Part shown: positions 2,860 through 26,000 of the stretch, piece after piece
Numbering within the stretch: the stretch's first letter is position 1
How the letters are laid out: each line of letters opens with the position of its first letter
Source: Ostreococcus lucimarinus
Lineage: Eukaryota
Length of the DNA stretch: 64,000 bases
Assembly (NCBI GenBank): GCA_000092065.1
Contig: CP000600.1
Direction: 5' to 3' (one strand)
The notes under the pieces: generated by a model
Databases searched by the model: none
Told to the model about the DNA's origin: nothing
The model's input: only the letters and a program-made list of their open reading frames with translations
Position numbers and translations under genes: made by a program

Positions 2860-3802
2860 CTACGCTAAAAACCTCTTGTGCTCGAGCGTTTTCCTCAGTC
2901 TGTCTGTTTCGGCCGCGAAGCCGGCGATGAACGCATCAAACTCGTCCGCGCCCGATACTATCCTCGAAGGCGGCGGCGGATACTCGTTCGAACTCACCCG
3001 ACGTCGCCGTTGAACATTTGATTTCTGCACCCCGCTCACCGACGCGACCAGATCGCGCATTTCGCGCTCGTGTTTTGCGCGCACCGTCTGCAACTCGTTC
3101 GAGCGCGCCCTTCGTTCCGTCGCGAGCTCCTCCTTGAGCGCGTTGATCTTCTTCGTCTGCCGCTCGCTCTTCGCCTGTAACTTTTTAAGTTCAGTTTCTA
3201 GCTCCTCCACTCGTCGTGTATCGCGCGGTCTCTCCCTCGCGACGACCACTGCCGGATACGAATCCTTCGCGTCGTCGCGAGACACGCGCCGCGACGCCGA
3301 CGCCGACGCCGACGCCTCAATCTCCACCATCCGTCGCATCTCCTCCGCGCGCGCGTCCTCGCCATCACCACTCACGCTCACGCGCACGCATGCGTCCTTC
3401 GCTCTCTCTCGAGCGCCACCACCGATCTCCCGCTCGACGTCGTCCTCGACGACCCTTCGCGTCAAATTCCAACCGACCGCGTCGTCCCTACAAAACCGTC
3501 CCACTCGCCCGCTCGGCGGCGCTCGATCGAACGGCCGCGCCAAACGCGGCGCGGCGTCCGAGCGCGTCGCTCGCAGCATCTCCAGCAGCAACCGCGCGTG
3601 CGCGTTTCTATTCTCCCGCAACGCGCGCACGCGCTCGCGCTGGTCCAGGTGTTGACACCACGCGCGCACGCGAATTCGCGTCGGTTTATCCCGCACCGCG
3701 TCCGCGCGAGCCCGCAGGCATCTCGCCAGTATCGCGTACTCGCGCTCGAGGTCGTCGTCGTCGACGTCCGCCGCGTCCGGCGCGCGCGCGGGCGGCGGCA
3801 TG
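2860..3802 (-). CDS. hypothetical coiled-coil protein
   Basis: Minus-strand ORF 2860..4344. The C-terminal coiled-coil segment is convincing (RVEELETELKKLQAKSERQTKKINALKEELATERRARSNELQTVRAKHEREMRDL). The start was set at the ATG at 3802 (MPPPARAP...) because the upstream part is Arg-rich and antisense to the neighbouring gene. Confidence 0.4.
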
Positions 3803-3885
3803 GAGTGTCCACCGCGCGCGTCGCCGCGCGCGGGTTCGATCGACGCGCGCGGGTTTGAATTTTCGCGATCGAACCTCGGCCAGCG

Positions 3886-3930
3886 GTCGGTCGATCGATC
3901 GATCGATCGAGCGCGCGAGCGATCGATCGC
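3886..3930. repeat. (GATC)n / TCGATCGA palindromic microsatellite in a divergent promoter
   Basis: The string gtcggtcgatcgatcgatcgatcga...gcgatcgatcgc lies between the divergent starts at 3802 and 3934. Confidence 0.85.
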
Positions 3931-3933
3931 ATC

Positions 3934-6900
3934 GTGCGCGCCCCGATGGTGACGCGCGGGAGACCGACGCGCGCGCGCGCGATGGACGCCGAGTCGCGAC
4001 GCGCGATGACGGCGGCGCGACGCCATCGCGCGGCGCGCGCGAGCGCGCGAGCGGACGCGGACGCGCGACGCGCGGATGCGGATGCGAAGGCTGCGCGACG
4101 ACGCGCGCGTGGACGCGCGACGCGAGGGCGCGCGAGGGCGTCGATTCGCGCGACGATCGCCGCGCTCGTGGGTGCGTGCGTCGTGATGTGCGTCCCGCGG
4201 GGTGGGTGCGCGGCGGAGGGCGTCGACGCGCACGGCGCGGTGGCGAAGAGAACGTCGACGAACACGAAGAGCGAGGGTGTTGGCGGGATGTTGAATGAGA
4301 TTAGCGAGCTCGTCGAGCGCCAACGCGCGTTTGAAGATGCACACGAGGGGTGTGAGAACGTGAGACTCGTGTTGCTAGAGGCGCCTAAGCGCGGACGGGT
4401 GTCGATCGCGCTTCGCGATGGGTCGAAGCTTTGGCAAAGGTTTGAGTTTCGAGACGCGGGGGCGCAGACGACGTGCGTGGACCTGAGCGAACCGAACGAT
4501 TTTGAAATCACGACCGCGGGCGCGCGAGGCGACGATGATGAGTATTCCATAAGAGTCGAGAAGGAGACGGGCGACGCGTTGCTGATGCGGCTTGGCGCCG
4601 ATGACGAGAATGGAGAGGCGCACACGACGTACGCGGCGCTCAAGCTGAGGACGGCGTCGGGTAAAAACGTGGGCGTTTTAGGTGATCGGTTCGAGTCATG
4701 CGAAGATGTGGTCGTGGACACCGCATTCGCGCGTCACGCAGGCGTCGCGCGAAGCATGCAGCACCGCTTATTGGATGACAGCGGTGACTTGCTGAGCAAG
4801 TGGACAAGCCACGCGACCGGGCAGAAGAAGATGTGCTTGCTTCGAGGTCGCGATTACACGCTCCATCTAAACGGAGCGATGTCTCGTGGACGTGTCGACG
4901 ACCAGTTGGCCGTGAGAGTCACGCGCGAAGAAGGTGATGAAAGCGACGGGTTTACATACTTGACCACGAGATCACAGGCAATGGTGAATGACAAAAATGA
5001 TGTGTACATCGGTGTGCAAGATGCGACGCAAGATAACATCGATTTGCGCGGCGTTTACCACTTTCATATCCCTTCAGCCTGCGCCATGGATGAAGTTGAG
5101 CTTTCTGTCGTTCTGAAAGCGTCGAAGTACGGTGATAGCGTGCCGCCCGAGGGTATGTCCTGGATAGTCCAGGATGAGGCGGGATCGCTCGTCATGAAAA
5201 CGGCGAAGCGGTTTAGGACACAAGACTACGGTGTCACTCGCCATCAGTCCATGTGCGTTCCGAAGGGCAAGTATGAATTCATTGCCTTTGCGTCCGATAA
5301 GAGAGGTTGGAAGTACGGTACTGAGCTCAAGATTTATCAGCGACTGCAGGGGGGTAAGAGACAGCTGCTCGCCTCGAGAGGGGGCAATGAGGAAGCCAGC
5401 GCCAGGGGTTTCTCGGCTCCTTGGTTTAGCGGCGCGTTGATTTCGGAACCGATTGAGCTCAGCGTTGGAACGGAGCAAAGTGCGGTTGCGAGCCAAGACG
5501 AACCATCGGTGAAAATCGCCTTTCAAGGGCCGAAAGCATTGCTTGGAAATGCTCGCTTTGTTCCTTCTCGTGCGTTGGTTCGCGCCGACGTCATGGCAAT
5601 TATTTCCGCGTGCGTCGCCGTGTGTGCGCTCGTTGCGTTACATAACGACACTAAGGATGGAGATGGAGAGGTGAAAATTTCGCTTGTTGATGGCAAAGCC
5701 AATTCAGCGTACGGCACGGACACTGCTAAGAAGACTGACGTCGGCGAGCATGTGTCAAGATCATCGAGCGGCAAAAGTCACGGTTTGGTCTCAAGATCAA
5801 GTTATCTTAAAATAGTGGCTGTCGGAGCATCGGCGCTTTCGGTCATGGCGATTGGCTCGATTGGATCAGTGCGATTAGATGAAACTTCGCGGCTTGGGAA
5901 TTCGACAGTTCGACAAGCGACGTGCGGTATGGGTGTCACAAAATGTCAATTTGTTCACTCTCCCGACTGTAGGAGTAAGACGATGTACGCGTATCGGAGC
6001 GGGAAATTGGCGCATGATCCTTTGCTCGTGCTCCCTTACGAGAGTAGTATCCTCGATGGATCAAGCATTGCTGCTGAAATAAAGTTTGATGCTAATTTCT
6101 GCGCCGTGCAGGGCATGAAGACGTGCAACGATTTGGGGGACACTTCAGCAGATACACTCACTGGCTGCTCTCAGGCGTGCAGAGCGAAGGATGGTTGTGA
6201 GAGTTTTAGTCTTCAAAGTACGGTGTGTCGTCTTTGCAGCACGGAACATGTCTCTCGTAGCGTAGCTACATCCACTGTTTCGGTCGCGCGTTGCATGCGT
6301 CCGTACCAGTTTGCTTTTCAAGGGGTTTCGCTCGATGAATGCGCAAAGGCTTGCGACGACACCGCTGCGTGTCGTGGCTTCAATTATTTTGAGAGGTCTC
6401 ACGCGATGTCTTCTCACTGCAGTCTCCTACGCGCACCTGCCCATTTCGAGGCACACGTCTGGCGAGATAGCGCGAGGACAAAAAGTGGCATCGTGGGCGC
6501 CGCGACATACTACAAGGTTCCAAGCATGGGCACCTTGTGCAAAGAGCGAGGTGAAGCAGTACAAGCACCTGCGCTTCCTTCCGGTTTAGGAATTGGCGAC
6601 TCCGCGGACGATGCAGTCATCACTTCTCGCGATGGTTATCCGCATGACAACTTTTATGCGGGTGACAAGGGATACCCGAATGACGAGGCACGTCCCCCGA
6701 ATCACGACGACAGCGATTTCGTGGCCGATTTCATGATCACGAGCGAAATTGAATTAATCGGCGTTACGGTCCATAGTCTTGAGAGCAATGACGTCTCGCG
6801 GCGTGCATTTGTTAAGGGATTGGCGATATTCTTCGGCATCACTTCTGATGAAGTTGTGATAATGGACGTGACGCCATCACAAGACGTGGGCACATCGCAT

Positions 6901-9900
6901 GGGGTCCATGTCGCATTCGTCATCTTGACCACGTCGTCACACAAGATGTCGCAAGTCGTGGGAGATATCAAGAGCGTGCTCGATGAACCAAACGATGAGG
7001 TTAGACTTCTGTTTAACGGAGCAGGCTTAACCGTCACGAAAGCCACCTTCCAAGAGCCACCATTGGTTACGGAACAGGAGGCAAGTCCGAGTCCGACGGC
7101 GAGTGACGAACTCGTCACGAATGTCTCGACAACTGTCGAAGGTAAGCCCGTGGCTCCGACGGCAAACACAACTCAAACGCCATCGAACGTCACGGAAAAC
7201 GAACCAGTTGCGACGAATTTGCCGCCGACGAGCATTCCTGGCGCGGATCTTGCGATTACGGGTGCTTTGCAGATCGTGGGATATACTCCCGAGGAGTTCG
7301 ACGCCACTGCGCGAGAGAGATTGCGTCGCTCCATGTTGACATTCTTCATGGCTCACAATGATGACATATCGATCGCTCTGATGCAGAACGCTTCGTTAGT
7401 CGAAGGGACTCAAGTGGCTTACAAAATGAAGGAGAATAATCCTCACAAAGCGACGATCATCGTTGAGGCTTTGTTACTGATGCAAGAGCCTAGCGCGATA
7501 TCAGAAAACTTCCTGCACGTCTTGCACTTTAAAGGATTGACAAACGTGCAAACTTCACTTACAATTGGGCATCCTCGCGTGGTTTTAGAGAAGCACATGC
7601 CGCCACCGCCGCCTTCGCCGCCACCGCCACCAAAGACGATTGTCATGGTGCAGAATATCACCAAGACTATCAACGTTGTTCAGTCTGCACTGGAGTTGAA
7701 GGGCATCAACGTGCAAACTTTCAATGAAGCCAAGAAAGACTTTCTGAAAGCCGGTCTGTCGGAGTTCATGAGCAAGGTTTTACAAAGAACAGTGACATCA
7801 GATTTGATCAGAGTCCTTTCCGTCAGTGGGCAAGGCTATATCAAATACTTTGACACCAATATTGTATCTTCGGGGGACGTCGCACAACTCGGAATTTCGT
7901 CATCCAACGTGAAAGTTAATTACGAAGTCATCGTCGGCGAAGAAGAAGACGCAAAGACGATGGCTCTCTTGAATGAATTATCTGGGGGGACGTCGACCCC
8001 GATTTCACGTGATGTCGACCAGGACGTGTACCCGTCAGAGGCGGATGCATACCCGTCAGAGGCGGATGCATATCCAGCAAGATCTCCCCCCATAGAGAGC
8101 GATGACCAATATCCATCGTCGACGTCCAACTCGGACTCGAGTCTCGTCACGAACGACTTACTTGGTACGCTCTTACTTGATATCAAAGAAAACGGCTTGG
8201 CAGAAGTCGAGGAGATCGAGATAGAAGAGTTGCCCGTCGCGAAGAAGCAAGAAGTCTCGGAGCAAGTTGAAATCGAGGTTCTCGCACCTGAGACTTCGAC
8301 GCCGGTCACGGAAGAGGAAGAACTAACAGATCTCAATGATGATGAGACGATAGAAACCAATTTCTTGAAAGCTCTTGACGAGATCAAGGTTTTATCTAAC
8401 GCATCAGATGCGGAAGTGTACTTGGTGGATAGCGTGCTTCGCATTGATGGTTACGACATGAACACATTTGATGCGGTATCCCGTAACGCCTTTACGGCAG
8501 GTATGGCAAGGTTTTTGGGGATTGCATTCGCGCATGTTCGCATAATCGACGTGACAGTAGTTCACACATCGACCGGTCGACGCTTACTGACGGATTTGCT
8601 CGACGTTGAGTTCGTCGCCGAGTTGCCGACTGAAGAGTCTGCCAACGCTGTGGCTCAAGAAATAACTGATCTCATGGACAGTGAAAATGCAGAAGCAATT
8701 CAGAACGAGCTCATGACTGATCTGCAAGAGGCTGGTCTGGATCAAGTGACGAACGGCGAAATGACGCAAGTACCCGTCATATCAAGTGCATCAAGCGAAC
8801 CATCCAGTCCGGTGCCGGGCGAGACGCCGAACGCGTACCCGACACAGAGCCCCGTGCCGGGCGAGACGCCGAACGCGTATCCGACACAGAGCCCCGTGCC
8901 GGGTGAGGCGCCGAACGCGTACCCGACGTCAAGTCCGAACGCGTATCCGACACAGAGCCCCGTGCCGGGCGAGGCGCCGAACGCATATCCGACACAGAGC
9001 CCCGTGCCGGGCGAGGCGCCGAACGCGTACCCGACGCCCAGTCCGAACGCGTATCCGACACAGAGCCCCGTGCCGGGCGAGGCGCCGAACGCGTATCCGA
9101 CACAGAGCCCCGTGCCGGGCGAGGCGCCGAACGCGTACCCGACGCCCAGTCCGAACGCGTATCCGACACAGAGCCCCGTGCCGGGCGAGGCGCCGAACGC
9201 ATATCCGACACAGAGCCCCGTGCCGGGCGAGACGCCGAACGCGTACCCGACGTCAAGTCCGAACGCGTATCCGACACAGAGCCCCGTGCCGGGCGAGGCG
9301 CCGAACGCATATCCGACACAGAGCCCCGTGCCGGGCGAGGCGCCGAACGCGTACCCGACGCCCAGTCCGAACGCGTATCCGACACAGAGCCCCGTGCCGG
9401 GCGAGGCGCCGAACGCATATCCGACACAGAGCCCCGTGCCGGGCGAGACGCCGAACGCGTACCCGACGTCAAGTCCGAACGCGTATCCGACACAGAGCCC
9501 CGTGCCGGGCGAGGCGCCGAACGCGTACCCGACGCCCAGTCCGAACGCGTATCCGACACAGAGCCCCGTGCCGGGCGAGGCGCCGAACGCGTATCCGACA
9601 CAGAGCCCCGTGCCGGGCGAGGCGCCGAACGCGTACCCGACGCCCAGTCCGAACGCGTATCCGACACAGAGCCCCGTGCCGGGCGAGGCGCCGAACGCAT
9701 ATCCGACACAGAGCCCCGTGCCGGGCGAGACGCCGAACGCGTACCCGACGTCAAGTCCGAACGCGTATCCGACACAGAGCCCCGTGCCGGGCGAGGCGCC
9801 GAACGCATATCCGACACAGAGCCCCGTGCCGGGCGAGACGCCGAACGCGTACCCGACGTCAAGTCCGAACGCGTATCCGACACAGAGCCCCGTGCCGGGC

Positions 9901-12900
9901 GAGGCGCCGAACGCGTATCCGACACAGAGCCCCGTGCCGGGCGAGGCGCCGAACGCGTACCCGACGCCCAGTCCGAACGCGTATCCGACACCGAGCCCCG
10001 TGCCGGGCGAGACGCCGAACGCGTATCCGACACAGAGCCCCGTGCCGGGCGAGGCGCCGAACGCATATCCGACACAGAGCCCCGTGCCGGGCGAGACGCC
10101 GAACGCGTACCCGACGTCAAGTCCGAACGCGTATCCGACACAGAGCCCCGTGCCGGGCGAGGCGCCGAACGCATATCCGACACAGAGCCCCGTGCCGGGC
10201 GAGACGCCGAACGCGTACCCGACGTCAAGTCCGAACGCGTATCCGACACAGAGCCCCGTGCCGGGCGAGGCGCCGAACGCATATCCGACACAGAGCCCCG
10301 TGCCGGGCGAGACGCCGAACGCGTACCCGACGCCCAGTCCGAACGCGTATCCGACACAGAGCCCCGTGCCGGGCGAGGCGCCGAACGCGTATCCGACACA
10401 GAGCCCCGTGCCGGGCGAGGCGCCGAACGCGTACCCGACGCCCAGTCCGAACGCGTATCCGACACAGAGCCCCGTGCCGGGCGAGGCGCCGAACGCGTAT
10501 CCGACACAGAGCCCCGTGCCGGGCGAGGCGCCGAACGCGTACCCGACGCCCAGTCCGAACGCGTATCCGACACAGAGCCCCGTGCCGGGCGAGGCGCCGA
10601 ATGCGTACCCGACGCCCAGTCCGAACGCGTACCCGACGCCCAGTCCGAGTGCGTACCCGACGCCCAGTCCAGAAGGTCCTTGCGAAGCCGTTTGCGCAGC
10701 GTTGAATAGTAAGAGCGGGCCAAACAATACAGCATCATGCGATATTCACTTTGGTTGCGTCTTTGACCACACGCAGATGAGCGGTCAAGGAGCGTGCATC
10801 TCTTTTGCGGCTGGTGGCGACGAACCTTGTCCTTCTCGAGCCGACTGGGATGCTATTGTACCTGGCCAAGACTGCAACACTGAGAACACGCCCACGTGCG
10901 CTCGGTTGTTTTACGGCGATGAATACGACAACGCAGTGGCTGGTACCCTTCCAGAGGACTGGGTCGGCGATTGGAGTGCGGTGCCGACACCAGAACCGTC
11001 AGTGCCTAGCGACAGTCATCCGACAACGGATTCGCATGCGTCTTTCTACCCAGCATCGAGCCCCGTGCCGGGCGAGACGCCGAACGCGTACCCGACGTCA
11101 AGTCCGAACGCGTATGACGTCGGTACGATGTCGTACGAAGAGTACGTGAAGACATACGGGGAGGATTTGGATGAAATTGCGAGCGCGTATCCGACACCGA
11201 GCCCCGTGCCGGGCGAGGCGCCGAACGCGTACCCGACGTCAAGTCCGAACGCGTATCCGACACAGAGCCCCGTGCCGGGCGAGGCGCCGAACGCGTATCC
11301 GACACAGAGCCCCGTGCCGGGTGAGGCGCCGAACGCGTACCCGACGTCAAGTCCGAACGCGTATGACGTCGGTACGATGTCGTACGAAGAGTACGTGAAG
11401 ACATACGGGGAGGATTTGGATGAAATTGCGAGCGCGTATCCGACACCGAGCCCCGTGCCGGGCGAGGCGCCGAACGCGTACCCGACGTCAAGTCCGAACG
11501 CGTATCCGACACAGAGCCCCGTGCCGGGCGAGGCGCCGAACGCGTATCCGACACAGAGCCCCGTGCCGGGTGAGGCGCCGAACGCGTACCCGACGTCAAG
11601 TCCGAACGCGTATGACGTCGGTACGATGTCGTACGAAGAGTACGTGAAGACATACGGGGAGGATTTGGATGAAATTGCGAGCGCGTATCCGACACCGAGC
11701 CCCGTGCCGGGCGAGGCGCCGAACGCGTACCCGACGTCAAGTCCGAACGCGTATCCGACACAGAGCCCCGTGCCGGGCGAGGCGCCGAACGCGTATCCGA
11801 CACAGAGCCCCGTGCCGGGTGAGGCGCCGAACGCGTACCCGACGTCAAGTCCGAACGCGTATCCGACACAGAGCCCCGTGCCGGGCGAGGCGCCGAACGC
11901 ATATCCGACACAGAGCCCCGTGCCGGGCGAGACGCCGAACGCGTACCCGACGTCAAGTCCGAACGCGTATCCGACACAGAGCCCCGTGCCGGGCGAGGCG
12001 CCGAACGCGTATCCGACACAGAGCCCCGTGCCGGGCGAGACGCCGAACGCGTATCCGACACAGAGCCCCGTGCCGGGTAAGGCGCCGAACGCGTACCCGA
12101 CGTCAAGTCCGAACGCGTATCCGACACAGAGCCCCGTGCCGGGCGAGGCGCCGAACGCATATCCGACACAGAGCCCCGTGCCGGGCGAGACGCCGAACGC
12201 GTACCCGACGTCAAGTCCGAACGCGTATCCGACACAGAGCCCCGTGCCGGGCGAGGCGCCGAACGCGTATCCGACACAGAGCCCCGTGCCGGGTGAGACG
12301 CCGAACGCGTACCCGACACCGAGCCCCGTGCCGGGCGAGACGCCGAACGCGTACCCGACACCGAGCCCCGTGCCGGGCGAGACGCCGAACGCATATCCGA
12401 CACCGAGCCCCGTGCCGGGTGAGACGCCGAACGCGTACCCGACACCGAGCCCCGTGCCGGGCGAGGCGCCGAACGCGTACCCGACACAGAGCCCCGTGCC
12501 GGGCGAGGCGCCGAACGCATATCCGACACAGAGCCCCGTGCCGGGCGAGACGCCGAACGCGTACCCGACGTCAAGTCCGAACGCGTATCCGACACAGAGC
12601 CCCGTGCCGGGCGAGACGCCGAACGCGTATCCGACGCCAAGTCCGAGCGCGTTCCCGACACCGAGCCCCGTGCCGGGCGAGACGCCAGCGGTAGGTCCGA
12701 CATATTCCGAACCGATCGCACAAATCGTGTATGAGACAAAGAGTGTGGTTAGACTTGTTGGCTACCACGCAGGCGCATTTGGCGAAACGCAGAGTCGGCT
12801 TTTCAAAGTTGGCATGGCCACATTTTACAAAGTCGCGCCAGAGGACATAAGCATCAGCTCTGTGAAGGATGTCGTCTCGTCGAGTAGTCGACGACTATTG

Positions 12901-13938
12901 CAAACATCGGCGATCGATGTGAACTACACCGTGACCTCGACGACGATCGAAAGTGTGTTAGAAGTCGCCAATCAAACCAACTCTGCTGTGACCACGACGC
13001 AAGGCGAAGTTTATGATGACTTACGCGCCGCCGGTTTGATCATCAGCGATGCCGTGATATTGTTGGAAGCACAAACTACTGAGAAAGCATCAGCGTTGGC
13101 ACCTTCGGGGCCATACGACATCAACGTCAACCTTCATCTTGACGTCGACGTCCACGTGGACAATGCGCCAGCGTCGCGTGAGCCTACGAGTTCAACACCT
13201 GGGGGAAATCCAGCTGACACGGAAGGCGGATATCCCTCGACGCCCACGTCATCCTATCCGGCGGGCGGATATCCCTCGACGCCCACGTCATCCTATCCGG
13301 CGGGCGGATATCCCTCGACGCCCACGTCATCCTATCCGGCGGGCGGATATCCCTCGACGCCCACGTCATCCTATCCGGCGGGCGGATATCCCTCGACGCC
13401 CACGTCATCCTATCCGGCGGCGCCTTCTGACTGTGTTCCAGTGAACACGGAAACAGAAGCGGCGCAATACTATCGAAACGAGTCGTTACAACACGAGGCA
13501 CTCGAAACGGCGCAGTCCTACGCTCGTCAAAATGATTTACCACTTCCGGACGCGCACACCTTTGTTCGTGCAAAGGTTTGCAACGCACCGCACATGCGAT
13601 GTTGCTCTGAGTTGAACTGGCGACAAGACAATCGAGTGAGATTTCCATTTGTCTGCGGTGACAGCGCGGGATGCGCAAAGAAGACGTTCGACGTCGCTAG
13701 AAAGAATTGTGTCGCCAGAGGTGGTGACTTGTGCCGCGGAAACGCGGTGAGTACGTCGATGCACGATCCATCGTGCGTGGGCACTAAGTCAGATTACGTA
13801 TGGACGCTCACGCACTGCGATGTCAATGGCGTGCACGGTCGCGTCATTCGTCCGAGCGCCGGCGGCGCGCCCGGAGCACTTTGCGAGACGAATCTGATGG
13901 CAAACCATCAGTCGAGATGCTGCTCCAACGTGTGTTGA
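3934..13938 (+). CDS. giant secreted/cell-surface mucin-like glycoprotein with PAN/apple modules, Pro-rich tandem repeats and Cys-rich C-terminal domains
   Basis: Single 3334-codon ORF. It has a hydrophobic signal-like stretch (IAALVGACVVMCV), two PAN/apple-like Cys modules (CRGFNYFE..., CQFVHSPDC...), Ser/Thr/Pro-rich stretches and a PPPPPSPPPPPK motif. About 130 copies of PVPGE[AT]PNAYPTQS / PNAYPT[PS]S repeats are present. A conserved roughly 45-aa module occurs four times. The C-terminal domain has about 16 Cys. The exact start is uncertain because about 70 Arg/Ala-rich codons precede the signal-like segment. Confidence 0.7.
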   Translation: MRAPMVTRGRPTRARAMDAESRRAMTAARRHRAARASARADADARRADADAKAARRRARGRATRGRARASIRATIAALVGACVVMCVPRGGCAAEGVDAHGAVAKRTSTNTKSEGVGGMLNEISELVERQRAFEDAHEGCENVRLVLLEAPKRGRVSIALRDGSKLWQRFEFRDAGAQTTCVDLSEPNDFEITTAGARGDDDEYSIRVEKETGDALLMRLGADDENGEAHTTYAALKLRTASGKNVGVLGDRFESCEDVVVDTAFARHAGVARSMQHRLLDDSGDLLSKWTSHATGQKKMCLLRGRDYTLHLNGAMSRGRVDDQLAVRVTREEGDESDGFTYLTTRSQAMVNDKNDVYIGVQDATQDNIDLRGVYHFHIPSACAMDEVELSVVLKASKYGDSVPPEGMSWIVQDEAGSLVMKTAKRFRTQDYGVTRHQSMCVPKGKYEFIAFASDKRGWKYGTELKIYQRLQGGKRQLLASRGGNEEASARGFSAPWFSGALISEPIELSVGTEQSAVASQDEPSVKIAFQGPKALLGNARFVPSRALVRADVMAIISACVAVCALVALHNDTKDGDGEVKISLVDGKANSAYGTDTAKKTDVGEHVSRSSSGKSHGLVSRSSYLKIVAVGASALSVMAIGSIGSVRLDETSRLGNSTVRQATCGMGVTKCQFVHSPDCRSKTMYAYRSGKLAHDPLLVLPYESSILDGSSIAAEIKFDANFCAVQGMKTCNDLGDTSADTLTGCSQACRAKDGCESFSLQSTVCRLCSTEHVSRSVATSTVSVARCMRPYQFAFQGVSLDECAKACDDTAACRGFNYFERSHAMSSHCSLLRAPAHFEAHVWRDSARTKSGIVGAATYYKVPSMGTLCKERGEAVQAPALPSGLGIGDSADDAVITSRDGYPHDNFYAGDKGYPNDEARPPNHDDSDFVADFMITSEIELIGVTVHSLESNDVSRRAFVKGLAIFFGITSDEVVIMDVTPSQDVGTSHGVHVAFVILTTSSHKMSQVVGDIKSVLDEPNDEVRLLFNGAGLTVTKATFQEPPLVTEQEASPSPTASDELVTNVSTTVEGKPVAPTANTTQTPSNVTENEPVATNLPPTSIPGADLAITGALQIVGYTPEEFDATARERLRRSMLTFFMAHNDDISIALMQNASLVEGTQVAYKMKENNPHKATIIVEALLLMQEPSAISENFLHVLHFKGLTNVQTSLTIGHPRVVLEKHMPPPPPSPPPPPKTIVMVQNITKTINVVQSALELKGINVQTFNEAKKDFLKAGLSEFMSKVLQRTVTSDLIRVLSVSGQGYIKYFDTNIVSSGDVAQLGISSSNVKVNYEVIVGEEEDAKTMALLNELSGGTSTPISRDVDQDVYPSEADAYPSEADAYPARSPPIESDDQYPSSTSNSDSSLVTNDLLGTLLLDIKENGLAEVEEIEIEELPVAKKQEVSEQVEIEVLAPETSTPVTEEEELTDLNDDETIETNFLKALDEIKVLSNASDAEVYLVDSVLRIDGYDMNTFDAVSRNAFTAGMARFLGIAFAHVRIIDVTVVHTSTGRRLLTDLLDVEFVAELPTEESANAVAQEITDLMDSENAEAIQNELMTDLQEAGLDQVTNGEMTQVPVISSASSEPSSPVPGETPNAYPTQSPVPGETPNAYPTQSPVPGEAPNAYPTSSPNAYPTQSPVPGEAPNAYPTQSPVPGEAPNAYPTPSPNAYPTQSPVPGEAPNAYPTQSPVPGEAPNAYPTPSPNAYPTQSPVPGEAPNAYPTQSPVPGETPNAYPTSSPNAYPTQSPVPGEAPNAYPTQSPVPGEAPNAYPTPSPNAYPTQSPVPGEAPNAYPTQSPVPGETPNAYPTSSPNAYPTQSPVPGEAPNAYPTPSPNAYPTQSPVPGEAPNAYPTQSPVPGEAPNAYPTPSPNAYPTQSPVPGEAPNAYPTQSPVPGETPNAYPTSSPNAYPTQSPVPGEAPNAYPTQSPVPGETPNAYPTSSPNAYPTQSPVPGEAPNAYPTQSPVPGEAPNAYPTPSPNAYPTPSPVPGETPNAYPTQSPVPGEAPNAYPTQSPVPGETPNAYPTSSPNAYPTQSPVPGEAPNAYPTQSPVPGETPNAYPTSSPNAYPTQSPVPGEAPNAYPTQSPVPGETPNAYPTPSPNAYPTQSPVPGEAPNAYPTQSPVPGEAPNAYPTPSPNAYPTQSPVPGEAPNAYPTQSPVPGEAPNAYPTPSPNAYPTQSPVPGEAPNAYPTPSPNAYPTPSPSAYPTPSPEGPCEAVCAALNSKSGPNNTASCDIHFGCVFDHTQMSGQGACISFAAGGDEPCPSRADWDAIVPGQDCNTENTPTCARLFYGDEYDNAVAGTLPEDWVGDWSAVPTPEPSVPSDSHPTTDSHASFYPASSPVPGETPNAYPTSSPNAYDVGTMSYEEYVKTYGEDLDEIASAYPTPSPVPGEAPNAYPTSSPNAYPTQSPVPGEAPNAYPTQSPVPGEAPNAYPTSSPNAYDVGTMSYEEYVKTYGEDLDEIASAYPTPSPVPGEAPNAYPTSSPNAYPTQSPVPGEAPNAYPTQSPVPGEAPNAYPTSSPNAYDVGTMSYEEYVKTYGEDLDEIASAYPTPSPVPGEAPNAYPTSSPNAYPTQSPVPGEAPNAYPTQSPVPGEAPNAYPTSSPNAYPTQSPVPGEAPNAYPTQSPVPGETPNAYPTSSPNAYPTQSPVPGEAPNAYPTQSPVPGETPNAYPTQSPVPGKAPNAYPTSSPNAYPTQSPVPGEAPNAYPTQSPVPGETPNAYPTSSPNAYPTQSPVPGEAPNAYPTQSPVPGETPNAYPTPSPVPGETPNAYPTPSPVPGETPNAYPTPSPVPGETPNAYPTPSPVPGEAPNAYPTQSPVPGEAPNAYPTQSPVPGETPNAYPTSSPNAYPTQSPVPGETPNAYPTPSPSAFPTPSPVPGETPAVGPTYSEPIAQIVYETKSVVRLVGYHAGAFGETQSRLFKVGMATFYKVAPEDISISSVKDVVSSSSRRLLQTSAIDVNYTVTSTTIESVLEVANQTNSAVTTTQGEVYDDLRAAGLIISDAVILLEAQTTEKASALAPSGPYDINVNLHLDVDVHVDNAPASREPTSSTPGGNPADTEGGYPSTPTSSYPAGGYPSTPTSSYPAGGYPSTPTSSYPAGGYPSTPTSSYPAGGYPSTPTSSYPAAPSDCVPVNTETEAAQYYRNESLQHEALETAQSYARQNDLPLPDAHTFVRAKVCNAPHMRCCSELNWRQDNRVRFPFVCGDSAGCAKKTFDVARKNCVARGGDLCRGNAVSTSMHDPSCVGTKSDYVWTLTHCDVNGVHGRVIRPSAGGAPGALCETNLMANHQSRCCSNVC
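8805..10670 (+). repeat. coding tandem repeat array 1 (42-nt and 24-nt units encoding PVPGE[AT]PNAYPTQS and PNAYPT[PS]S)
   Basis: Near-identical units run for about 1.9 kb. All six frames are open, which generates several spurious 600-aa ORFs in the track. Confidence 0.9.
11055..12690 (+). repeat. coding tandem repeat array 2, including a 249-nt higher-order repeat x3 (about 11106..11852)
   Basis: The same 42/24-nt units as array 1. Three copies of a 249-nt superunit each encode YDVGTMSYEEYVKTYGEDLDEIASAYPTPS. The phased small ORFs at 11171, 11420 and 11669 confirm the 249-nt period. Confidence 0.9.
13226..13420 (+). repeat. 39-nt coding repeat x5 (GGYPSTPTSSYPA)
   Basis: Five perfect copies of ggcggatatccctcgacgcccacgtcatcctatccggcg. 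Confidence 0.85.
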
Positions 13939-15106: not shown

Positions 15107-15160
15107 TAACCCTAACCCTAACCCTAACCCTAGTCCTAACCCTAATTTACAAACCCTAAT
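15107..15160. promoter_or_regulatory. interstitial telomere-like (CCCTAA)n tract with an AAACCCTAA telo-box in a bidirectional promoter
   Basis: The sequence ataaccctaaccctaaccctaaccctagtcctaaccctaatttacaaaccctaatac lies inside the 128-bp spacer between the divergent ATGs at 15052 (minus) and 15181 (plus). Confidence 0.6.
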
Positions 15161-20054: not shown

Positions 20055-23000
20055 CTATCGTGCGCCAGAGGACGCACATCCCGTCGTGGAGGCGCTGTAG
20101 CCTTCGTTACACGTGCAGGTCGGTACGTTCGCATCGTTAAGCCCGCAAGTTCCGAAACCAGAACACGTCGTTCCCGCCGCGACGTCGTATCCAGGGCATT
20201 TGATGACGCAATAATCTCCAAGTTCGGTGGTGGTAGTGTCGAAAATCCCAGCGCACGTGACGCGCAGCTGCGCCGGATCTTGCTTGCACGCATCGCCCAA
20301 ACTCGCGTCTGGATCGCCGGTGAGGTACCATTTGCCCTTACACACACTCGGCCGCATGCTTTCGTAAAGCTCATCGAGGTACGCGACAGAGTAATCGTTT
20401 TTGTATTGTCTGTAGTAGTTGAACAGCGAGATTTGACGTTGTTCTTCGGCATTCACGTCCACAAACGTCCCGATACCAAACGAATCGAACCGAATGGACT
20501 CGCCCACAACTGTGGCCGAAGGATCCACTGCTTCTTGAACGTAATAGTCGGCTCGCACCAAAATTTCTGTGAGCGACGCCAAGCACCAAGCAAGATCGCT
20601 AAATGTGGCAGGGTTACCAGTCCGCGATAGACGGTTCGCCACAACTGCCTCGTAAACCTCTGGATAAACATCAAAGTCGAGGCGATCTCGCGCAATCTCT
20701 CTACCACTCGATTGCTGTAGTACTGTACCACCATCACTTCGACCAGTCGTATCTGTGACGATGGGTATGTCTGCAGCTAAGTTAAGCGTCGCCGCCGTCA
20801 AACCGGAAAATGGGTCATAGGGATTACCTGAGGTTCGAGTGGTGTAGACCGTTCCGTCCATGTAATGCACAGCGGGATCATTCGACCACTTGAACCCTGA
20901 AAGGACTGGCTCCAGGTTTTTCCATCCTGCACTTTCCAAGAGATCAACCTTGAAATTCAAACCGCATCTCGCCGCAGAGCAAGACGTCGGCGGATACCCC
21001 TTTTGATCAGAGTCAATTTTATATCCAAGAAAGACTTGCGGTGTGTTGAGGTACTGTTCCACGATTGCTATGGTCTGCGCACGCGAGAGTTGCTGATTCA
21101 GCCCGAGCTCTGGGAAATTTGTTCGGCTCCAATTATACACTTGATCGCGAGAACCCCACACTGGCACTTCGCGGTTGTACCGCGGTCGACCGCCCATGAG
21201 AATGATATCGTACGCCGATGTTTGATGCGCCTCCACATGCGCGGTCCCCGCGTTTGCCGCAGAATTTGCCGCTGACTCCACCATATACAATGAATACGTT
21301 ATCGAAGCGCCGTATGCATTTTTACTCAGCAAATCACCCGTGAATTTTTCGGGTGCGCGCAAGTACGCGAGTCCGTTCGTGGAATCGTCCGTCAACTTGT
21401 CCGTGAGGTGTAGATATCCGCTTATCCCTTCCCAGAGTAACCCGCTGTCGCCACCTGCGAACGCAAAATTGCACTCTCCGCGCATCAATTGCTCCGAATT
21501 GATCGCGAACGGGTCGTAGACATTGCCAGATAAAATTGATTCGGCGAGCTCACCCGAGCACGAATTATTGTACACCGTCCAGCCCTCTGGTCCCTCCGTG
21601 AATTCAGATTTGACGATGAATGAAGAAGCCTCGGGCCGAGAGCAGTCGACAAACGACCAACCATCTTGACATGCACACGATCCGTCCATCTGACAGTAGC
21701 CATTAACGCAAGGGTTACATTGAACATCGCAAGACAACCCAGTCCAACCGACGTCGCATTTGCACGTACCGTCGGTGAGGCAAGCGCCGTGATCGTAATT
21801 GCATGGGAGACATTCCGTAAAATTTCGAATGTCACAAGTCGTGCCCAACCATCCTTTATTGCAAAGGCAAGTGCTGTCTGCTTGGCACGCGCCGTTGTGG
21901 CACGGAGCACAGGGTACGAAACAATCTTCGCCAGAATATTGTACCCCTCCATCGTCGGTACCGCACACGCAAGTCCCGTCTCGCTTGCAGAATCCCCATG
22001 ATCGAATCTGCACTCCGTGTGCGGTCGTTTTGATGACTTCGGAAACACTACCATCTTCATTTGTGGCGTACTCTTTGAAGCAATTGCAGGACTTGTCACA
22101 CCTTTCTCCGTACCAACCGGTTTCACATTCGCACTTGCCATTCAGTTGACACGTCCCGTGATCTGGATCACACGCGTCGCACGCAATGGAACATGTTGTT
22201 CCCGTATAGGCGCCTGTTAATCCGGAATTCACACCGTGGATAAGCGTATTGATGATCCAAATCATTGTACGATCCGCGCCTGTCGTGCGCGTGGTCACAT
22301 ATTCTCCACTAGTCGCATCGTACATACCCGCTAGGAAGACGTTCATCAAACGCTGTCGCTCGTCTTTACTGTTTGTGTACCAGCGCTCCTGATCGGATGA
22401 CTCTGTCGCTATTTTTAGATCTACTCGAGTGGCTCCGATTGCTTCTTTACGCATCCGTAAGAAATGCGCCTTCAATGCGTCGTCGCAGTCCCAAGGATTG
22501 GCAGCTTCCCAGTCGTCGCCGCAGTTTGTGGTCGACGCGAGCGAAGCCATGCATTCGCCCGTCGTTGCGTCATTTTTATAGTCCAATTTCGAACAGATAT
22601 CGTCCGCGCGCATTGATTCGGGGATGTTGACAATGTCGTTTTGATACTGCAGAAGCTGCGCCTCGAGTGCGGTGCGAGTGGCTGCCCCAACGGCGTCAGC
22701 GGCGGTGGTTACACCGTACCGAAAGTACGTTTCATTTGGTCTGAAGGGTAACTTGGAATCAATTGTGCGGCTCGCGCAGTCAGGGCGATCAGCGCATACG
22801 GAATCGACGCCCCAGACGTAGTCTTCCACTTGAATCGCACTCATGTAATAAGGAGGAATGTACTCTCCCGAAGCTAGTTCACCGTTGGTTGCGTAATGTG
22901 GATCGCGATCAAGACGCAGAGCGAATGAGTGATCTCTAAGCCGTCTCGTTCCGTCGCACAGGCAACTACCGTCGTACTGACACGTGCCGTGAACACACGG

Positions 23001-26000
23001 CTCGCACGGTGTTAGGCAACGATACCCAGTCCAGCCATCGGCGCAGTCGCATGTACCCGTGGTCGAATTGCAGACGCCATTTCCCGAACACGGTGCGCAC
23101 GGGATGTCGCAAGTGGACCCGGCCCAACCTTGCCAATATTCATCGTAAACTTTCGATGTTAATGACTGTGAGCTTGGGAATTCACTTCTCCCCACGCTTA
23201 AGGCGTCGCACACGCAATATCCGCCAGTGATGGGCATTTGTGGCCCAGTTGTACTATCATCTGGAGCGCACACGGCGCCCGCGATAATCCCCCACTCAGT
23301 GTGTGACTTCAAGGCAGTGGGGTCCCGAATTATCGATCCATCCACTCGTTTCTCCACGTAAGGCATCGCGACGAGGTATTCGCCACCTTGACATGTGCCA
23401 TCAGCTACCAAAGTGCCCGAACATCCGTATCCACCGACTCCGTTTGGATCAACATTCGTCCAAGGCTGTCCCGTGCCCGCGACCATGGAGAAACCCGGAG
23501 CACACGTTGCGTTTACATACTCACCATTCATGGAACACGGATGCTTGATTGCACACGTGTGGTATGCCGCATCATAAAATAAGGACGATGTACCGCCAAT
23601 ATCAGCGGATTCGAACACACCATTGGAGCCTCCGGTCCACCACGGGTACGGAGTCACCGCAGCCGTACGGCCGACATCCGCCGTCGAACGCGTCGCAGGT
23701 TGCCAAATGTAACCGTAGTCGCAAACACACTCGCCGTCGTCCTGACAAGTCCCGAAGGCGCATGCGTCACATGCTTTGTTACAGTCACGTCCTCTACTGA
23801 CACTCCCGTCTGCGAGACGATTGACTTGCGGTAAGCCTGTCCAACCCGGTTTGCACACGACTTCCGTCATCCACGGATCTCCAAAGTCCGCATCGTTTGC
23901 GTCTTTCATGACGCATACGCCGTTTGCGGCGTTATACGAATAAGGACAAATGTAGTTGCACATCGGGCCCGTGAAGCCCTCGTTACATTCACACGTCACC
24001 GTGGTGCCAAGTAAGCCAAGTCCGTCCAATGCGCCGTTCAAGTTTCTCGTTCCTCGACTCAAGTAGATATCATCACCACACTCGATGTTGCAGTCGTTGC
24101 CAGAGTACCCTGCGTTACACACGCACGCGCCTGTCGGTCCACACGTCCCATGGACACATGGTACGCAAGTGATCGAGCAGTCTGCACCAGTAAATCCCGG
24201 AGAGCACACACAGTTGCCGTGCGTACCGTTGAATACGCAAGTGCCAAATGCGGAGCACGTGGCACATTGAACTTCGCAATAATCTCCGGTCCATCCGTCT
24301 TCGCAGTTGCAAAATGCAATTTCTCGTCCATCTGGACTCGTGTACTCGTGTACATCTGTCGTGTTGAATAACCCAGTCGAAGTCGCGTTTGGAAATCGAT
24401 CGGTCACCGTTGCGACTTCTTCGGACGTCAGGTACCTCACGGCCCCGTTCCCGTTACATGCCTGCGAACAATCTGCGCCTGTGTAACCAGGAAAGCACGA
24501 GCATGTTGCATTTTCAGTACACTCACCAAAGCCACAATCGGGACACGGTAAGTTGCACGTCGCTCCCGCCCGCACAAGTTTCCCATCCGCGCCCGCAAGA
24601 CATTTGCACAACGTCGTGATATTGTTTTCCTGATATGCCAAGGCGGCATCCTCACGCGCAGATTGATCCCCTATAGTCGTATCGGTATAGATTTCCATCA
24701 GTTTGTCTTTGATACCTGCAGCAAGCTCTGGTGGGGGGTAGCACTCTCCGTACGTACCACACTCGACAGTACATCCAATAGTGCAGTCGGCGCCGGTGTA
24801 GCCAGGATTGCAAATACAAATACCCTCACCTGATGCATCGGCACCGCAGGTACCTTGTTGCGCCAAGGGTTCCGTTGCGCAAGGACACTCTTGTGTGCAC
24901 GATGAACCGGAATATCCTAAAGAGCACGTACACTGCGGTTCCTTCAAAGTGTACTCCTTAGTCGCGGCGTTCCACGATGCCTCTGACGTCGCGGTGAGAG
25001 AGCATGTACCAGTTTCGGCTGAGCATGCGCCACAAACGACGCTGCAGTCTCTCCCAGTAAAGCCAACGTTACACTCACATACATTTGTAGAGGAGTTGTA
25101 GGTACCGTGCGCGTTGCACTCGATCCCACAGTTGCTACCTGAAAAACTATCGATGCAGTCGCATGTCTGGGTCGGACGATCGTACGTGCCGCGCTCCGAA
25201 CACACGTGCGTTTCGCACGCATCACCAGAGTATTCGGACTCTACCGCGGGCGGAATAATAGTGCAACTGCATACAGCGGAGTTCTTTCCGCGCTTACCGT
25301 TATTGTTGCAAAACAACGGATCGGTGATGAGTTCGTCGTACAAAGCATCGCCGACGCGAGAAGATTCTTGCACGTCAACGTTCGCAGTTGCCGTGACGGA
25401 ATTACCGGAAGAATCCGTGAGTGTGAAGTTAAACGCGCGAATTCCTGCTGTGAATTTAAGATTATTGGAGACTTGATCTCCCCCTCCTTCATACTGCGAT
25501 CCTGTCACTTGTTCCACGCTTCCTTCGTTGTGGTAACGAATGGTGCCGATAACTTTACAGTAGTTTGTCACGCTGTCGTAGTTTGAAAGCAATAATCTCT
25601 TTTGCGTGGAGTCCCATGCCGATGCGATGCTCGTTCCCGTGGTGTCTGCGGAAATATATTCGGCCGCACCGTCTGGAAGACTCCCAACATCAACGTTCGC
25701 AATGGCGGCGCTTGCGAGGACGACGTCGTCATCGTCACCGCACGCGTATTCCACATCAGTCAGCCTCACCCCAATCATACGCTCTTTCTCCGTTAACACC
25801 ACTGAGTACGTTTGTCCGTCTCGCGGTCCGTTCAAATCGAGCACAGGCGCCGCGTTTGTCCGACTCATCTTGATCGTCGCCAACGCTGGCGCGCTCATCC
25901 GCCCGGACGCATCCGTAACGATCGCCGTCACTCCTCGTGGTGTCATCGCGATGTTCTCTCCGTTGTGCACGTACGTGAGCGTTTTAAGCGTGTTCAATAT

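Follow-up and report, generated by a model that had tools for sequence, protein, structure and literature searches.

The 64,000-nucleotide stretch of Ostreococcus lucimarinus contig CP000600.1 (GCA_000092065.1) analysed here, hereafter the window, carries a giant gene (3934..13938, plus strand) with mucin-like tandem arrays. Comparison with related assemblies shows the gene, at the level of sequence, to be intact and conserved, while the length of the stalk predicted from its arrays shifts by whole-unit steps between strains. The product is probably a giant membrane-tethered, mucin-like cell-surface glycoprotein belonging to an uncharacterised Mamiellales-type family, a reading to which we assign a probability of roughly 0.6. 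A preliminary description of the stretch had proposed a 10-kb gene for a mucin-like surface glycoprotein, and both elements are supported: the open reading frame (ORF), whose coordinates take in the stop codon, runs through 3334 codons without an internal stop or an intron, and the arrays rich in Pro, Ser, Thr and Tyr, the PAN modules and the Cys-rich domains fit such an architecture. The first ATG is found at 3946 (MVTRGR...), a start Met shared with most other gene models of the locus, and the product comprises 3,330 amino acids, with a mass of ~351 kDa when unmodified and a pI of 4.6. Intact orthologous ORFs are present in the same synteny in an independent 545-kb contig (L002; 3,093 amino acids) and in a sister lineage (L003; 2,864 amino acids).

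Structure and composition of the tandem arrays

The arrays were delimited with Tandem Repeats Finder and a peptide tokeniser, which were in agreement. Array 1 (8809..10668, plus strand) consists of 51 units, 33 of 42 nt and 18 of 24 nt, organised mostly as a 108-nt higher-order repeat (LLs), while array 2 (11062..12666, plus strand) holds 36 units (27 of 42 nt and nine of 24 nt), including three copies of a 249-nt higher-order repeat. Together they contain 60 units of 42 nt and 27 of 24 nt, giving 87 copies in place of the about 130 initially estimated, with 3,168 nt of units in a span of 3,465 nt. A third array (13225..13420, plus strand), which had been missed together with three hydrophobic segments and five internal alpha/beta modules, is formed by five copies of a 39-nt unit with 100% identity and encodes GGYPSTPTSSYPA.

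The 42-nt unit translates as PVPG[EK][AT]PNAYPT[QPS]S and the 24-nt unit as P[NS]A[YF]PT[QPS]S. A 17-nt core, CCGAACGCGTAYCCGAC, occurs 85 times at no more than one mismatch, all within positions 8827-12635, and is absent from 100 shuffles. The 42-nt units comprise 16 DNA variants and seven peptide variants, with a mean pairwise DNA identity of 0.90. Thus, of the two near-perfect arrays of about 3.5 kb first reported, the arrays and their span stand, while the term near-perfect holds only for the higher-order repeats, namely the 108-nt unit (16.5 copies; 94% identity) and the 249-nt unit (3.2 copies; 99% identity), the latter of which includes a 33-residue acidic non-repeat insert, NAYDVGTMSYEEYVKTYGEDLDEIASAYPTPS. 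Variation at the protein level is restricted to unit position 6 (A/T), position 13 (Q/P/S) and one E-to-K replacement, with all other variable columns representing third codon positions, so that, apart from the E-to-K change, the units show the synonymous or single-residue differences expected.

The 1,155 residues of arrays 1 and 2 include 322 Pro (28%), 232 Ser and Thr (20%) and 101 Tyr, with 80 acidic and only 4 basic residues. Pro, Ala, Ser and Thr (PAST) make up 57-62% of the arrays and 42% of the whole protein, such that the composition threshold for arabinogalactan proteins (AGPs; PAST >50%) is exceeded in the former and not in the latter. The SP, TP, AP and VP dipeptides of the arrays are non-contiguous, and each unit contains one Tyr. 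Tyr is followed by Pro in 104 of 121 instances in the linkers and arrays (within 6540-13430) as against 2 of 38 in the globular domains. Linkers rich in Tyr-Pro are likewise found in the sister lineage and in a compact orthologue (P0174), and the dipeptide could be a modification or cross-linking motif. Large antisense or off-frame ORFs over the arrays (e.g. 8742-10727, minus strand) were discounted as by-products of stop-free repeats, and the off-frame peptides RTRIRHRAPCRARR... occur only in frameshifted assemblies.

Variation in array length between strains

The L002 contig (JGI 3300046167; 544,997 bp) is of chromosome scale and derives from a different, very close strain, with point differences and small indels scattered over the flanking genes and intergenic regions. 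Across ~6 kb of non-repeat coding sequence of the giant gene, the window and L002 are separated by one nonsynonymous change (position 6811) and no synonymous changes, while their arrays contain 87 and 74 repeat units, respectively, which confirms the copy-number polymorphism that had been anticipated. Furthermore, L002 has one acidic insert where the window has three, and six copies of GGYPSTPTSSYPA as against five. When the two loci are mapped unit by unit, the array edges are the same (LJGa... at the start and ...aBDaBDaKbc at the end of array 1; F#HaBG...IQEFaRd in array 2), and the differences are all whole-unit, in-frame and confined to the interiors. This pattern is that of classic minisatellite change and is unlike assembly noise. 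The comparison shows that the length of the predicted stalk changes fast through the in-frame gain and loss of whole units, which would fit unequal exchange or replication slippage. At position 6811 the window has G (Val, AFVKGL), while the O. lucimarinus-type versions P0001-P0009 and P0016, as well as L002, all have A (Ile, AFIKGL); more divergent variants differ at the residue after the Ile (AFIRGL, AFIHGL, AFIQGL), and the reference strain carries the minority allele.

Seventeen relatives identified with the non-repeat N-terminal 1,609 residues share 85-100% identity over this part, yet range in total length from 1,755 to 2,726 amino acids, and tokenising places almost all of the length differences in the repeats. 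Short-read assemblies from ENA and metagenomes keep 3-21 units, with several collapsed across both arrays and the central Cys-rich module lost, which bears out the predicted propensity for assembly collapse, while several others pass into off-frame repeat peptides through frameshifts inside the repeats. Array 3 is represented by 0-3 copies in the short-read assemblies, and by a single degenerate copy in a group of 99% identity.

The sister lineage (L003/P0170) retains its 2,864-residue ORF intact, with 82-99% amino acid identity across the compared regions and dS values of 0.03-0.2. Its arrays contain 35 units of the 14-residue type with their own consensus, PVPGESPNAYPTSS, and a single 8-residue unit as compared to 27 in the window, which suggests lineage-specific homogenisation and agrees with the recent expansion or concerted evolution initially proposed for the arrays. 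The central Cys-rich module (~117 amino acids) is present as one copy in the window and L002 and as three tandem copies in both a population variant with 99% identity (L001/P0010) and the sister lineage; therefore, whole-domain copy number varies too.

Domain architecture and predicted membrane topology

All features described in this section are encoded on the plus strand. A simple hydropathy scan (Kyte-Doolittle, 19-residue windows) identified three hydrophobic segments, with values of 2.06, 2.46 and 1.88. The first is preceded by an Arg/Ala-rich N-terminal tail (3946..4140; residues 1-65), predicted to be cytoplasmic, with 22 Lys and Arg versus 6 Asp and Glu residues. Hydrophobic segment 1 itself (4141..4203; residues 66-86; mean 2.06) represents a putative signal anchor or signal peptide and is followed by PRGGCAA/EG. 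The N-terminal ectodomain (4228..5580; residues 95-545) is predicted to be all-beta on the basis of AlphaFold2 (AF2) secondary structure only and can be divided by eye into three units, each with a Cys pair. The MSW, C.P.G.Y and GW.YG motifs of the third unit, beta unit C, are invariant across the aligned family members. The ectodomain matches no known family, with Pfam comparison of beta unit C returning only noise. The remaining two hydrophobic segments form a predicted transmembrane (TM) hairpin (5584..5862), made up of TM2 (residues 547-565), a 55-residue loop rich in Ser, Lys and Gly, and TM3 (residues 621-639). The same hairpin, ahead of a PAN pair, is visible in the relatives P0174, P0178, P0179 and P0180. 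There is no hydrophobic segment after residue 639 and the protein ends in a Cys-rich domain; as such, the C-terminal single-pass TM segment of tethered mucins is absent.

A Cys-rich region downstream of the hairpin (5923..6540; residues 660-865; 17 Cys) harbours two PAN/apple modules. Residues 641-880 match PAN_4 in two stretches with 29.4 bits against a cutoff of 27, and PAN_1 with 26.1 against 21.4 (Pfam PF00024, PF14295). The PAN modules, the PPPPPSPPPPP motif and the Cys-rich C-terminus listed in the preliminary description are thus all present. Beyond the PAN pair are five paralogous alpha/beta modules of ~120 residues, namely m1 (6715..7080; residues 924-1045), m2 (7240..7605; residues 1099-1220), m3 (7663..8070; residues 1240-1375), m4 (8410..8784; residues 1489-1613) and m5 (12715..13089; residues 2924-3048), of which the first three are detected by a hidden Markov model built from m4 and m5. 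The single PPPPPSPPPPP motif (7600-7632; residues 1219-1229) is situated at the end of m2, and m3 ends in a (YPSEADA)2 mini-repeat (8029-8072). In the AF2 model, m5 has a beta-alpha-beta-beta-alpha-beta order, and the block means of the per-residue confidence score (pLDDT) are 72-93 outside the beta2-beta3 loop.

Two further Cys-rich domains flank the distal part of the arrays. The central module and its linker (10669..11061) contain 8 Cys at residues 2246-2318, while the C-terminal domain (13432..13935) contains 14 Cys and is one of the two most conserved parts of the protein, with 98% identity to the sister lineage and 64% to the compact orthologue. Neither domain has a match in Pfam or among PDB sequences. 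Phmmer and profile searches of PDB sequences yielded nothing meaningful for the C-terminal domain, the central Cys-rich module, the PAN region or beta unit C, and Foldseek comparison against the PDB gave no match at E <= 0.001. A C-type lectin assignment was considered for KTFDVARKNCVARGGDLC of the C-terminal domain and rejected, given an hhalign probability of 0.2% (nine-sequence profile against the rat MBP-A carbohydrate-recognition domain) and no hit at E <= 10 in a PDB profile search.

SEA domains and dystroglycan undergo cleavage in the beta2-beta3 loop of the domain. RRLL motifs are found in both m4 (8578-8589; residues 1545-1548) and m5 (12889-12900; residues 2982-2985), despite only 31% identity between these modules, and RRRLL occurs in the single module of P0174. 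In m5 the motif falls in the exposed beta2-beta3 loop of the model, itself a low-confidence part, and in m4 it occupies the position that aligns with this loop. A related sequence, KRQLL (5359..5373; residues 472-476), is located after beta unit C, at the position where RRRLL or RRALL precedes the first hairpin TM segment elsewhere in the family. The pattern [KRH][RQ].LL follows beta unit C directly in every family member examined, with RRRLL, RRALL and HRQLL among P0174, P0178, P0179 and P0180. RRLL is an established cleavage motif of site-1 protease (S1P), with the consensus R-(R/K/H)-L-(A/L/S/T/F) (PMC2685025). Since it is located in the very loop where SEA domains and dystroglycan are cleaved, it may be speculated that the motifs in m4 and m5 are candidate sites for an S1P-type subtilase, which would result in SEA-like two-chain processing and shedding.

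Conservation and divergence in the family

When 1.84 billion representative proteins were searched exhaustively by phmmer with residues 90-1289, only 11 matches emerged. One of these, P0174 (1,325 amino acids; e-value: 2e-179), shares 42% identity over query residues 21-833 (protein residues 110-922) and represents a compact orthologue, with the same ectodomain, hairpin, PAN pair and C-terminal Cys-rich domain, but with only a single alpha/beta module and with a PST repeat that is short and unlike that of the giant protein. The compact relatives (1,325-1,491 amino acids) have a common frame, with other repeats or none. P0179, an Ala-rich protein which, judging from its composition, perhaps derives from a Micromonas-like alga, encodes beta units, RRALL, the hairpin, two PAN modules, a disordered stalk rich in Ser, Thr and Ala and a homologous Cys-rich knob. 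P0180 follows a similar order through the PAN pair into the stalk and then ends without a knob, while in P0178 a cassette of unit C, hairpin and PAN is joined to a papain-type protease and a Pro-rich tail.

Family membership is thus indicated by collinear homology over the N-terminal ectodomain, hairpin, PAN pair and C-terminal Cys-rich domain. The relatives keep the order of these parts but differ in the stalk, and as such the frame is conserved and the stalk is the variable element. On this comparison, the predicted O. lucimarinus stalk has grown from one to five modules and has gained ~1,150 residues of PNAYPT arrays. Apart from PAN, no part of the family matches a known family. A word-index search with the five-module profile recovered only two fragments, both apparently from close Ostreococcus (one of them, P0172, near-identical), while a search with the C-terminal domain recovered six metagenomic proteins or fragments with 62-79% identity; distant relatives were illuminated by neither search.

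The ratios of nonsynonymous to synonymous substitution rates (dN/dS), calculated against the sister lineage, are 0.12-0.14 for the Cys-rich domains (0.12 for the C-terminal one), 0.28 for the PAN pair and 0.35 for modules 1-4. The globular domains remain under purifying selection, and the array edges stay fixed.

Proposed arrangement at the cell surface and its analogues

We suggest that the Arg-rich tail remains inside the cell and that, following hydrophobic segment 1, the ~450-residue all-beta ectodomain is exposed outside. The TM-loop-TM hairpin would then send the chain outside again, exposing ~2,690 further residues, an arrangement that follows from the hydropathy profile. Externally, the two PAN modules would be found near the membrane, followed by the four ferredoxin/SEA-like modules with their acidic Tyr-Pro linkers and array 1, and thereafter by the Cys-rich module, array 2, the fifth alpha/beta module, array 3 and the C-terminal Cys-rich knob. 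The arrays would probably form stalks that are extended, acidic and heavily O-glycosylated. If each residue contributes 0.25-0.31 nm, the predicted extension is ~155-192 nm for array 1 and ~134-166 nm for array 2, together ~290-360 nm, a considerable part of the ~1-micrometre width of the cell. Such stalks would leave the PAN pair close to the membrane, carry the central module and the C-terminal knob well away from it, and form a glycocalyx. The most likely function would be in surface recognition or adhesion, as a steric barrier, or in both capacities.

Several observations weigh against this arrangement. The topology derives from a single method, the simple hydropathy scan, and signal sequences do not usually have an Arg-rich leader of 65 residues. 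No Pfam match to SEA (PF01390) was obtained at E <= 1 over any of the modules, and the G/SVVV autoproteolysis motif is found in none of them. The dN/dS values of the N-terminal ectodomain, TM hairpin and m5 reach 0.6-1.2, based on few sites. Furthermore, AF2 failed on the N-terminal ectodomain (single sequence; pLDDT 41.5) and on the C-terminal Cys-rich domain (pLDDT <50), leaving these putative binding domains without a fold assignment.

By analogy, the closest functional counterparts may be the tethered mucins and dystroglycan, which have Pro/Thr/Ser arrays, SEA-like modules and membrane anchorage, and the fungal repeat adhesins, with their repeat-driven length variation. The giant protein has the Pro/Thr/Ser-rich tandem repeats and the between-strain difference (87 versus 74 units in a near-identical strain) of a mucin variable number tandem repeat (VNTR). 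However, it shows no sequence homology to MUC1 or MUC16 and carries RRLL in the loop, without a Pfam SEA match or G/SVVV. Whereas MUC1 and MUC16 span the membrane in a C-terminal single pass, the giant protein has a mid-protein hairpin and acidic units rich in Tyr-Pro, and nothing in these mucins corresponds to its PAN pair or to its two novel Cys-rich domains. Dystroglycan shares only 3-9% sequence identity with it, differs in domain order, and has a single TM segment and no tandem-array polymorphism.

In the fungal FLO and ALS adhesins, intragenic tandem repeats expand and contract by recombination, generating functional length variation between strains. The change in repeat number between the window and L002 is of the same kind, but the FLO and ALS proteins are anchored by glycosylphosphatidylinositol or to the wall, whereas the giant protein has a TM hairpin and an unrelated sequence and comes from a distant organism. 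A further likeness is to the PAN/apple adhesins, such as the apicomplexan micronemal proteins and oomycete CBEL, in which paired PAN modules are likewise found on a secreted or surface protein, although PAN accounts for only ~6% of the giant protein. We know of none among these protist adhesins in which PAN is found together with a TM hairpin, with SEA-like modules and with arrays of kilobase scale. In protists, the PAN/apple adhesins have been implicated in protein or carbohydrate binding (see PMC3532174 and PMC2575384).

The hydroxyproline-rich glycoproteins (HRGPs) of plants and green algae, which include AGPs, extensins, the Chlamydomonas agglutinins and a mastigoneme protein, resemble the giant protein in having repeats rich in Pro, Ala, Ser and Thr in a secretory protein of the green lineage. 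Its X-Pro dipeptides are non-contiguous, the type to which plants attach arabinogalactan, and its layout of a rod with globular Cys-rich domains is HRGP-like in being chimeric (see PMC11015965). Unlike the HRGPs, however, it has one Ser-Pro(3+) motif, no YXY and a predicted membrane tether. No sequence similarity to HRGPs was detected, with agglutinin similarity not having been searched for. By membership, only the PAN assignment holds, the sequence profile and autoproteolysis motif of SEA domains and the features that define extensins, C-type lectin-like domains and classical mucin anchorage having been looked for and not found. The architecture is novel and the family lineage-restricted and unannotated, while tandem-repeat surface glycoproteins with VNTR behaviour constitute a familiar class.

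Alternative interpretations

The preliminary description favoured a hydroxyproline-rich protein of an extracellular matrix or of scale type. Developed further, this reading makes the product a structural glycoprotein resembling AGPs or extensins, which would be secreted, released from the membrane and cross-linked through Tyr in a matrix, cryptic wall or scale layer. We consider this unlikely, although the AGP-like composition of the arrays (PAST 57-62%, non-contiguous SP/TP/AP/VP and one potentially cross-linking Tyr per unit) and the one PPPPPSPPPPP motif in the giant protein are compatible with it, and cleavage at RRLL or KRQLL, if real, could shed the distal part into a matrix. The premise of an alga thought to be wall-less is sound in that the neighbouring proteins are those of O. 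lucimarinus CCE9901, a 'naked' alga, but the true nakedness of Ostreococcus has already been questioned (PMC3355577) and extensin-like sequences have been reported in O. lucimarinus (PMC4769139). The three hydrophobic segments, including a hairpin that is visible in relatives, instead favour membrane tethering, and the PAN, SEA-like and Cys-rich globular modules are typical of adhesion and receptor proteins and not of wall polymers. Extensin character is not apparent, with a single SP(3+) motif (SPPPPP) in 3,330 amino acids and arrays that lack both SP3+ and YXY, and Ostreococcus has not been reported to bear scales (PMC3355577). Taken with the predicted hairpin anchorage, these features speak against an HRGP of the extracellular matrix or scale type.

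Rather improbable is a specialisation of the surface-protein reading in which the giant protein serves as a determinant of virus interaction, either as the attachment receptor for O. lucimarinus prasinoviruses or as a steric or decoy shield against them, with the hypervariable stalk length as a contingency mechanism. It would be in keeping with the difference in stalk length between near-identical strains, with the predicted ~130-190 nm length of each array and with the elevated dN/dS (0.6-1.2) of the N-terminal ectodomain and m5, but the latter values rest on few substitutions. In O. tauri, resistance to prasinoviruses correlates chiefly with surface glycans and glycosyltransferases, but resistant and susceptible lines did not differ in adsorption (PMC5082852), and the giant gene is found among housekeeping genes on a 549-kb contig and not within a glycosyltransferase cluster like that of the resistance-linked O. 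tauri chromosome 19. Searches of 2.9 million IMG/VR viral contigs gave no repeat-unit match and no homologue of the C-terminal domain, and a viral origin or viral counterpart is thus not supported.

A fuller scenario, which we regard as improbable in its entirety, would have a supposedly naked ~1-micrometre alga bearing a filamentous coat of the giant protein. The strain-specific stalk, with a predicted extended length of ~290-360 nm, would reach one third of the diameter of the cell and would be determined by a hypermutable in-frame minisatellite. S1P-type cleavage at RRLL in the SEA-like modules would serve to shed or remodel this coat, in convergence with the SEA autoproteolysis of animal mucins and dystroglycan. 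Stalk length would tune the access of viruses, grazers or partner cells, making the gene a contingency locus outside any glycosyltransferase cluster such as those found on the 'immunity chromosome' of O. tauri.

A functional specialisation as a cell-cell adhesion or gamete-recognition molecule, comparable to the giant fibrous sexual agglutinins of Chlamydomonas with their rod-like glycosylated shaft and terminal Cys-rich head, seems very unlikely. The combination of a long shaft rich in Pro and a strongly constrained globular Cys-rich knob at its end (dN/dS 0.12) would suit such a role, as would the use of PAN as an adhesion module in many lineages and the fast divergence of shaft and linkers between species and the sister lineage, but no mating-type linkage is evident within the window. 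Finally, that the array lengths or the long ORF are an artefact of assembly or annotation and the true gene is much shorter or split is scarcely credible: every short-read assembly is different and much shorter (1,755-2,726 amino acids), with several frameshifted inside the repeats, and a collection of 15 billion proteins, in which neighbouring reference proteins are present, contains neither the exact giant protein nor an NCBI or UniProt model of it, but the independent L002 contig has an intact 3,093-residue ORF with arrays of similar size, identical edges and whole-unit differences only, the sister lineage likewise has an intact 2,864-residue ORF, the reading frame is kept through 3.5 kb of repeats, and short reads would be expected to collapse in just this way, with the central module lost.

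Relevance and representation in databases

Ostreococcus serves as a standard model of the minimal eukaryotic cell and of marine virus-host interactions and is usually described as having no cell covering. If the giant gene is expressed, its product, with a mass of 351 kDa prior to any glycosylation, would constitute a major component of the surface, and one of unusual structure. Its family is marked by the joint presence of a double-ectodomain TM hairpin, a PAN pair, a stalk that varies and a Cys-rich knob of a novel kind. As its length differs between near-identical strains, the protein can be tested as a candidate basis for differences among strains in virus adsorption, grazing, aggregation or mating.

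The exact giant protein is not found in the 15-billion-protein collection, which does contain neighbouring reference proteins, and no NCBI, UniRef or EukProt model is present among any of its relatives, while the flanking CCE9901 genes have such entries. The locus is therefore probably unannotated or very differently modelled in the reference annotation. Given that practically all of the short-read assemblies examined show it collapsed or frameshifted, and that it apparently has no reference protein model, surveys of annotated proteins or of short-read metagenome-assembled genomes will miss or mis-measure it. Literature searches found no description of the giant gene.

Genomic context

Several neighbouring ORFs match proteins of O. 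lucimarinus CCE9901 exactly (XP_001422546.1, XP_001422714.1 and XP_001422715.1; 549,133-bp record). The giant gene has ordinary neighbours, including genes for an M32 carboxypeptidase, a DUF4485 protein, an Aminotran_4-family protein (bearing the source name 4-amino-4-deoxychorismate lyase), a SET-domain protein, an ABC transporter and a transportin, among others, and the region around it is no glycosyltransferase cluster such as those associated with resistance to viruses in O. tauri.

Directly upstream of the giant-gene start codon, in a divergent intergenic region of ~145 bp, a (TCGA)n microsatellite of ~12 copies is present at 3887..3934. Single-nucleotide polymorphisms (SNPs) and indels relative to strain L002 are concentrated in the intergenic positions 3820-3925, while the next 4.9 kb of coding sequence contains a single SNP. 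The upstream divergent DUF4485 gene (minus strand) also differs between the window and L002 by a 9-bp in-frame indel at 3359-3367.

A second giant surface-type gene (20055-26420, minus strand), located 6 kb downstream of the first, encodes a protein of 2,121 amino acids with teneurin-like EGF repeats (EGF_Teneurin, e-value: 1e-30; EGF_TEN; EGF_2) and a weak Laminin_B match. In addition, an interstitial telomere-like repeat, (TAACCC) x 6.5, is found at 15107-15145, in the 128-bp divergent promoter between the Aminotran_4-family (minus strand) and SET-domain (plus strand) genes, and indels relative to L002 occur just 3' of it, at 15144-15159.

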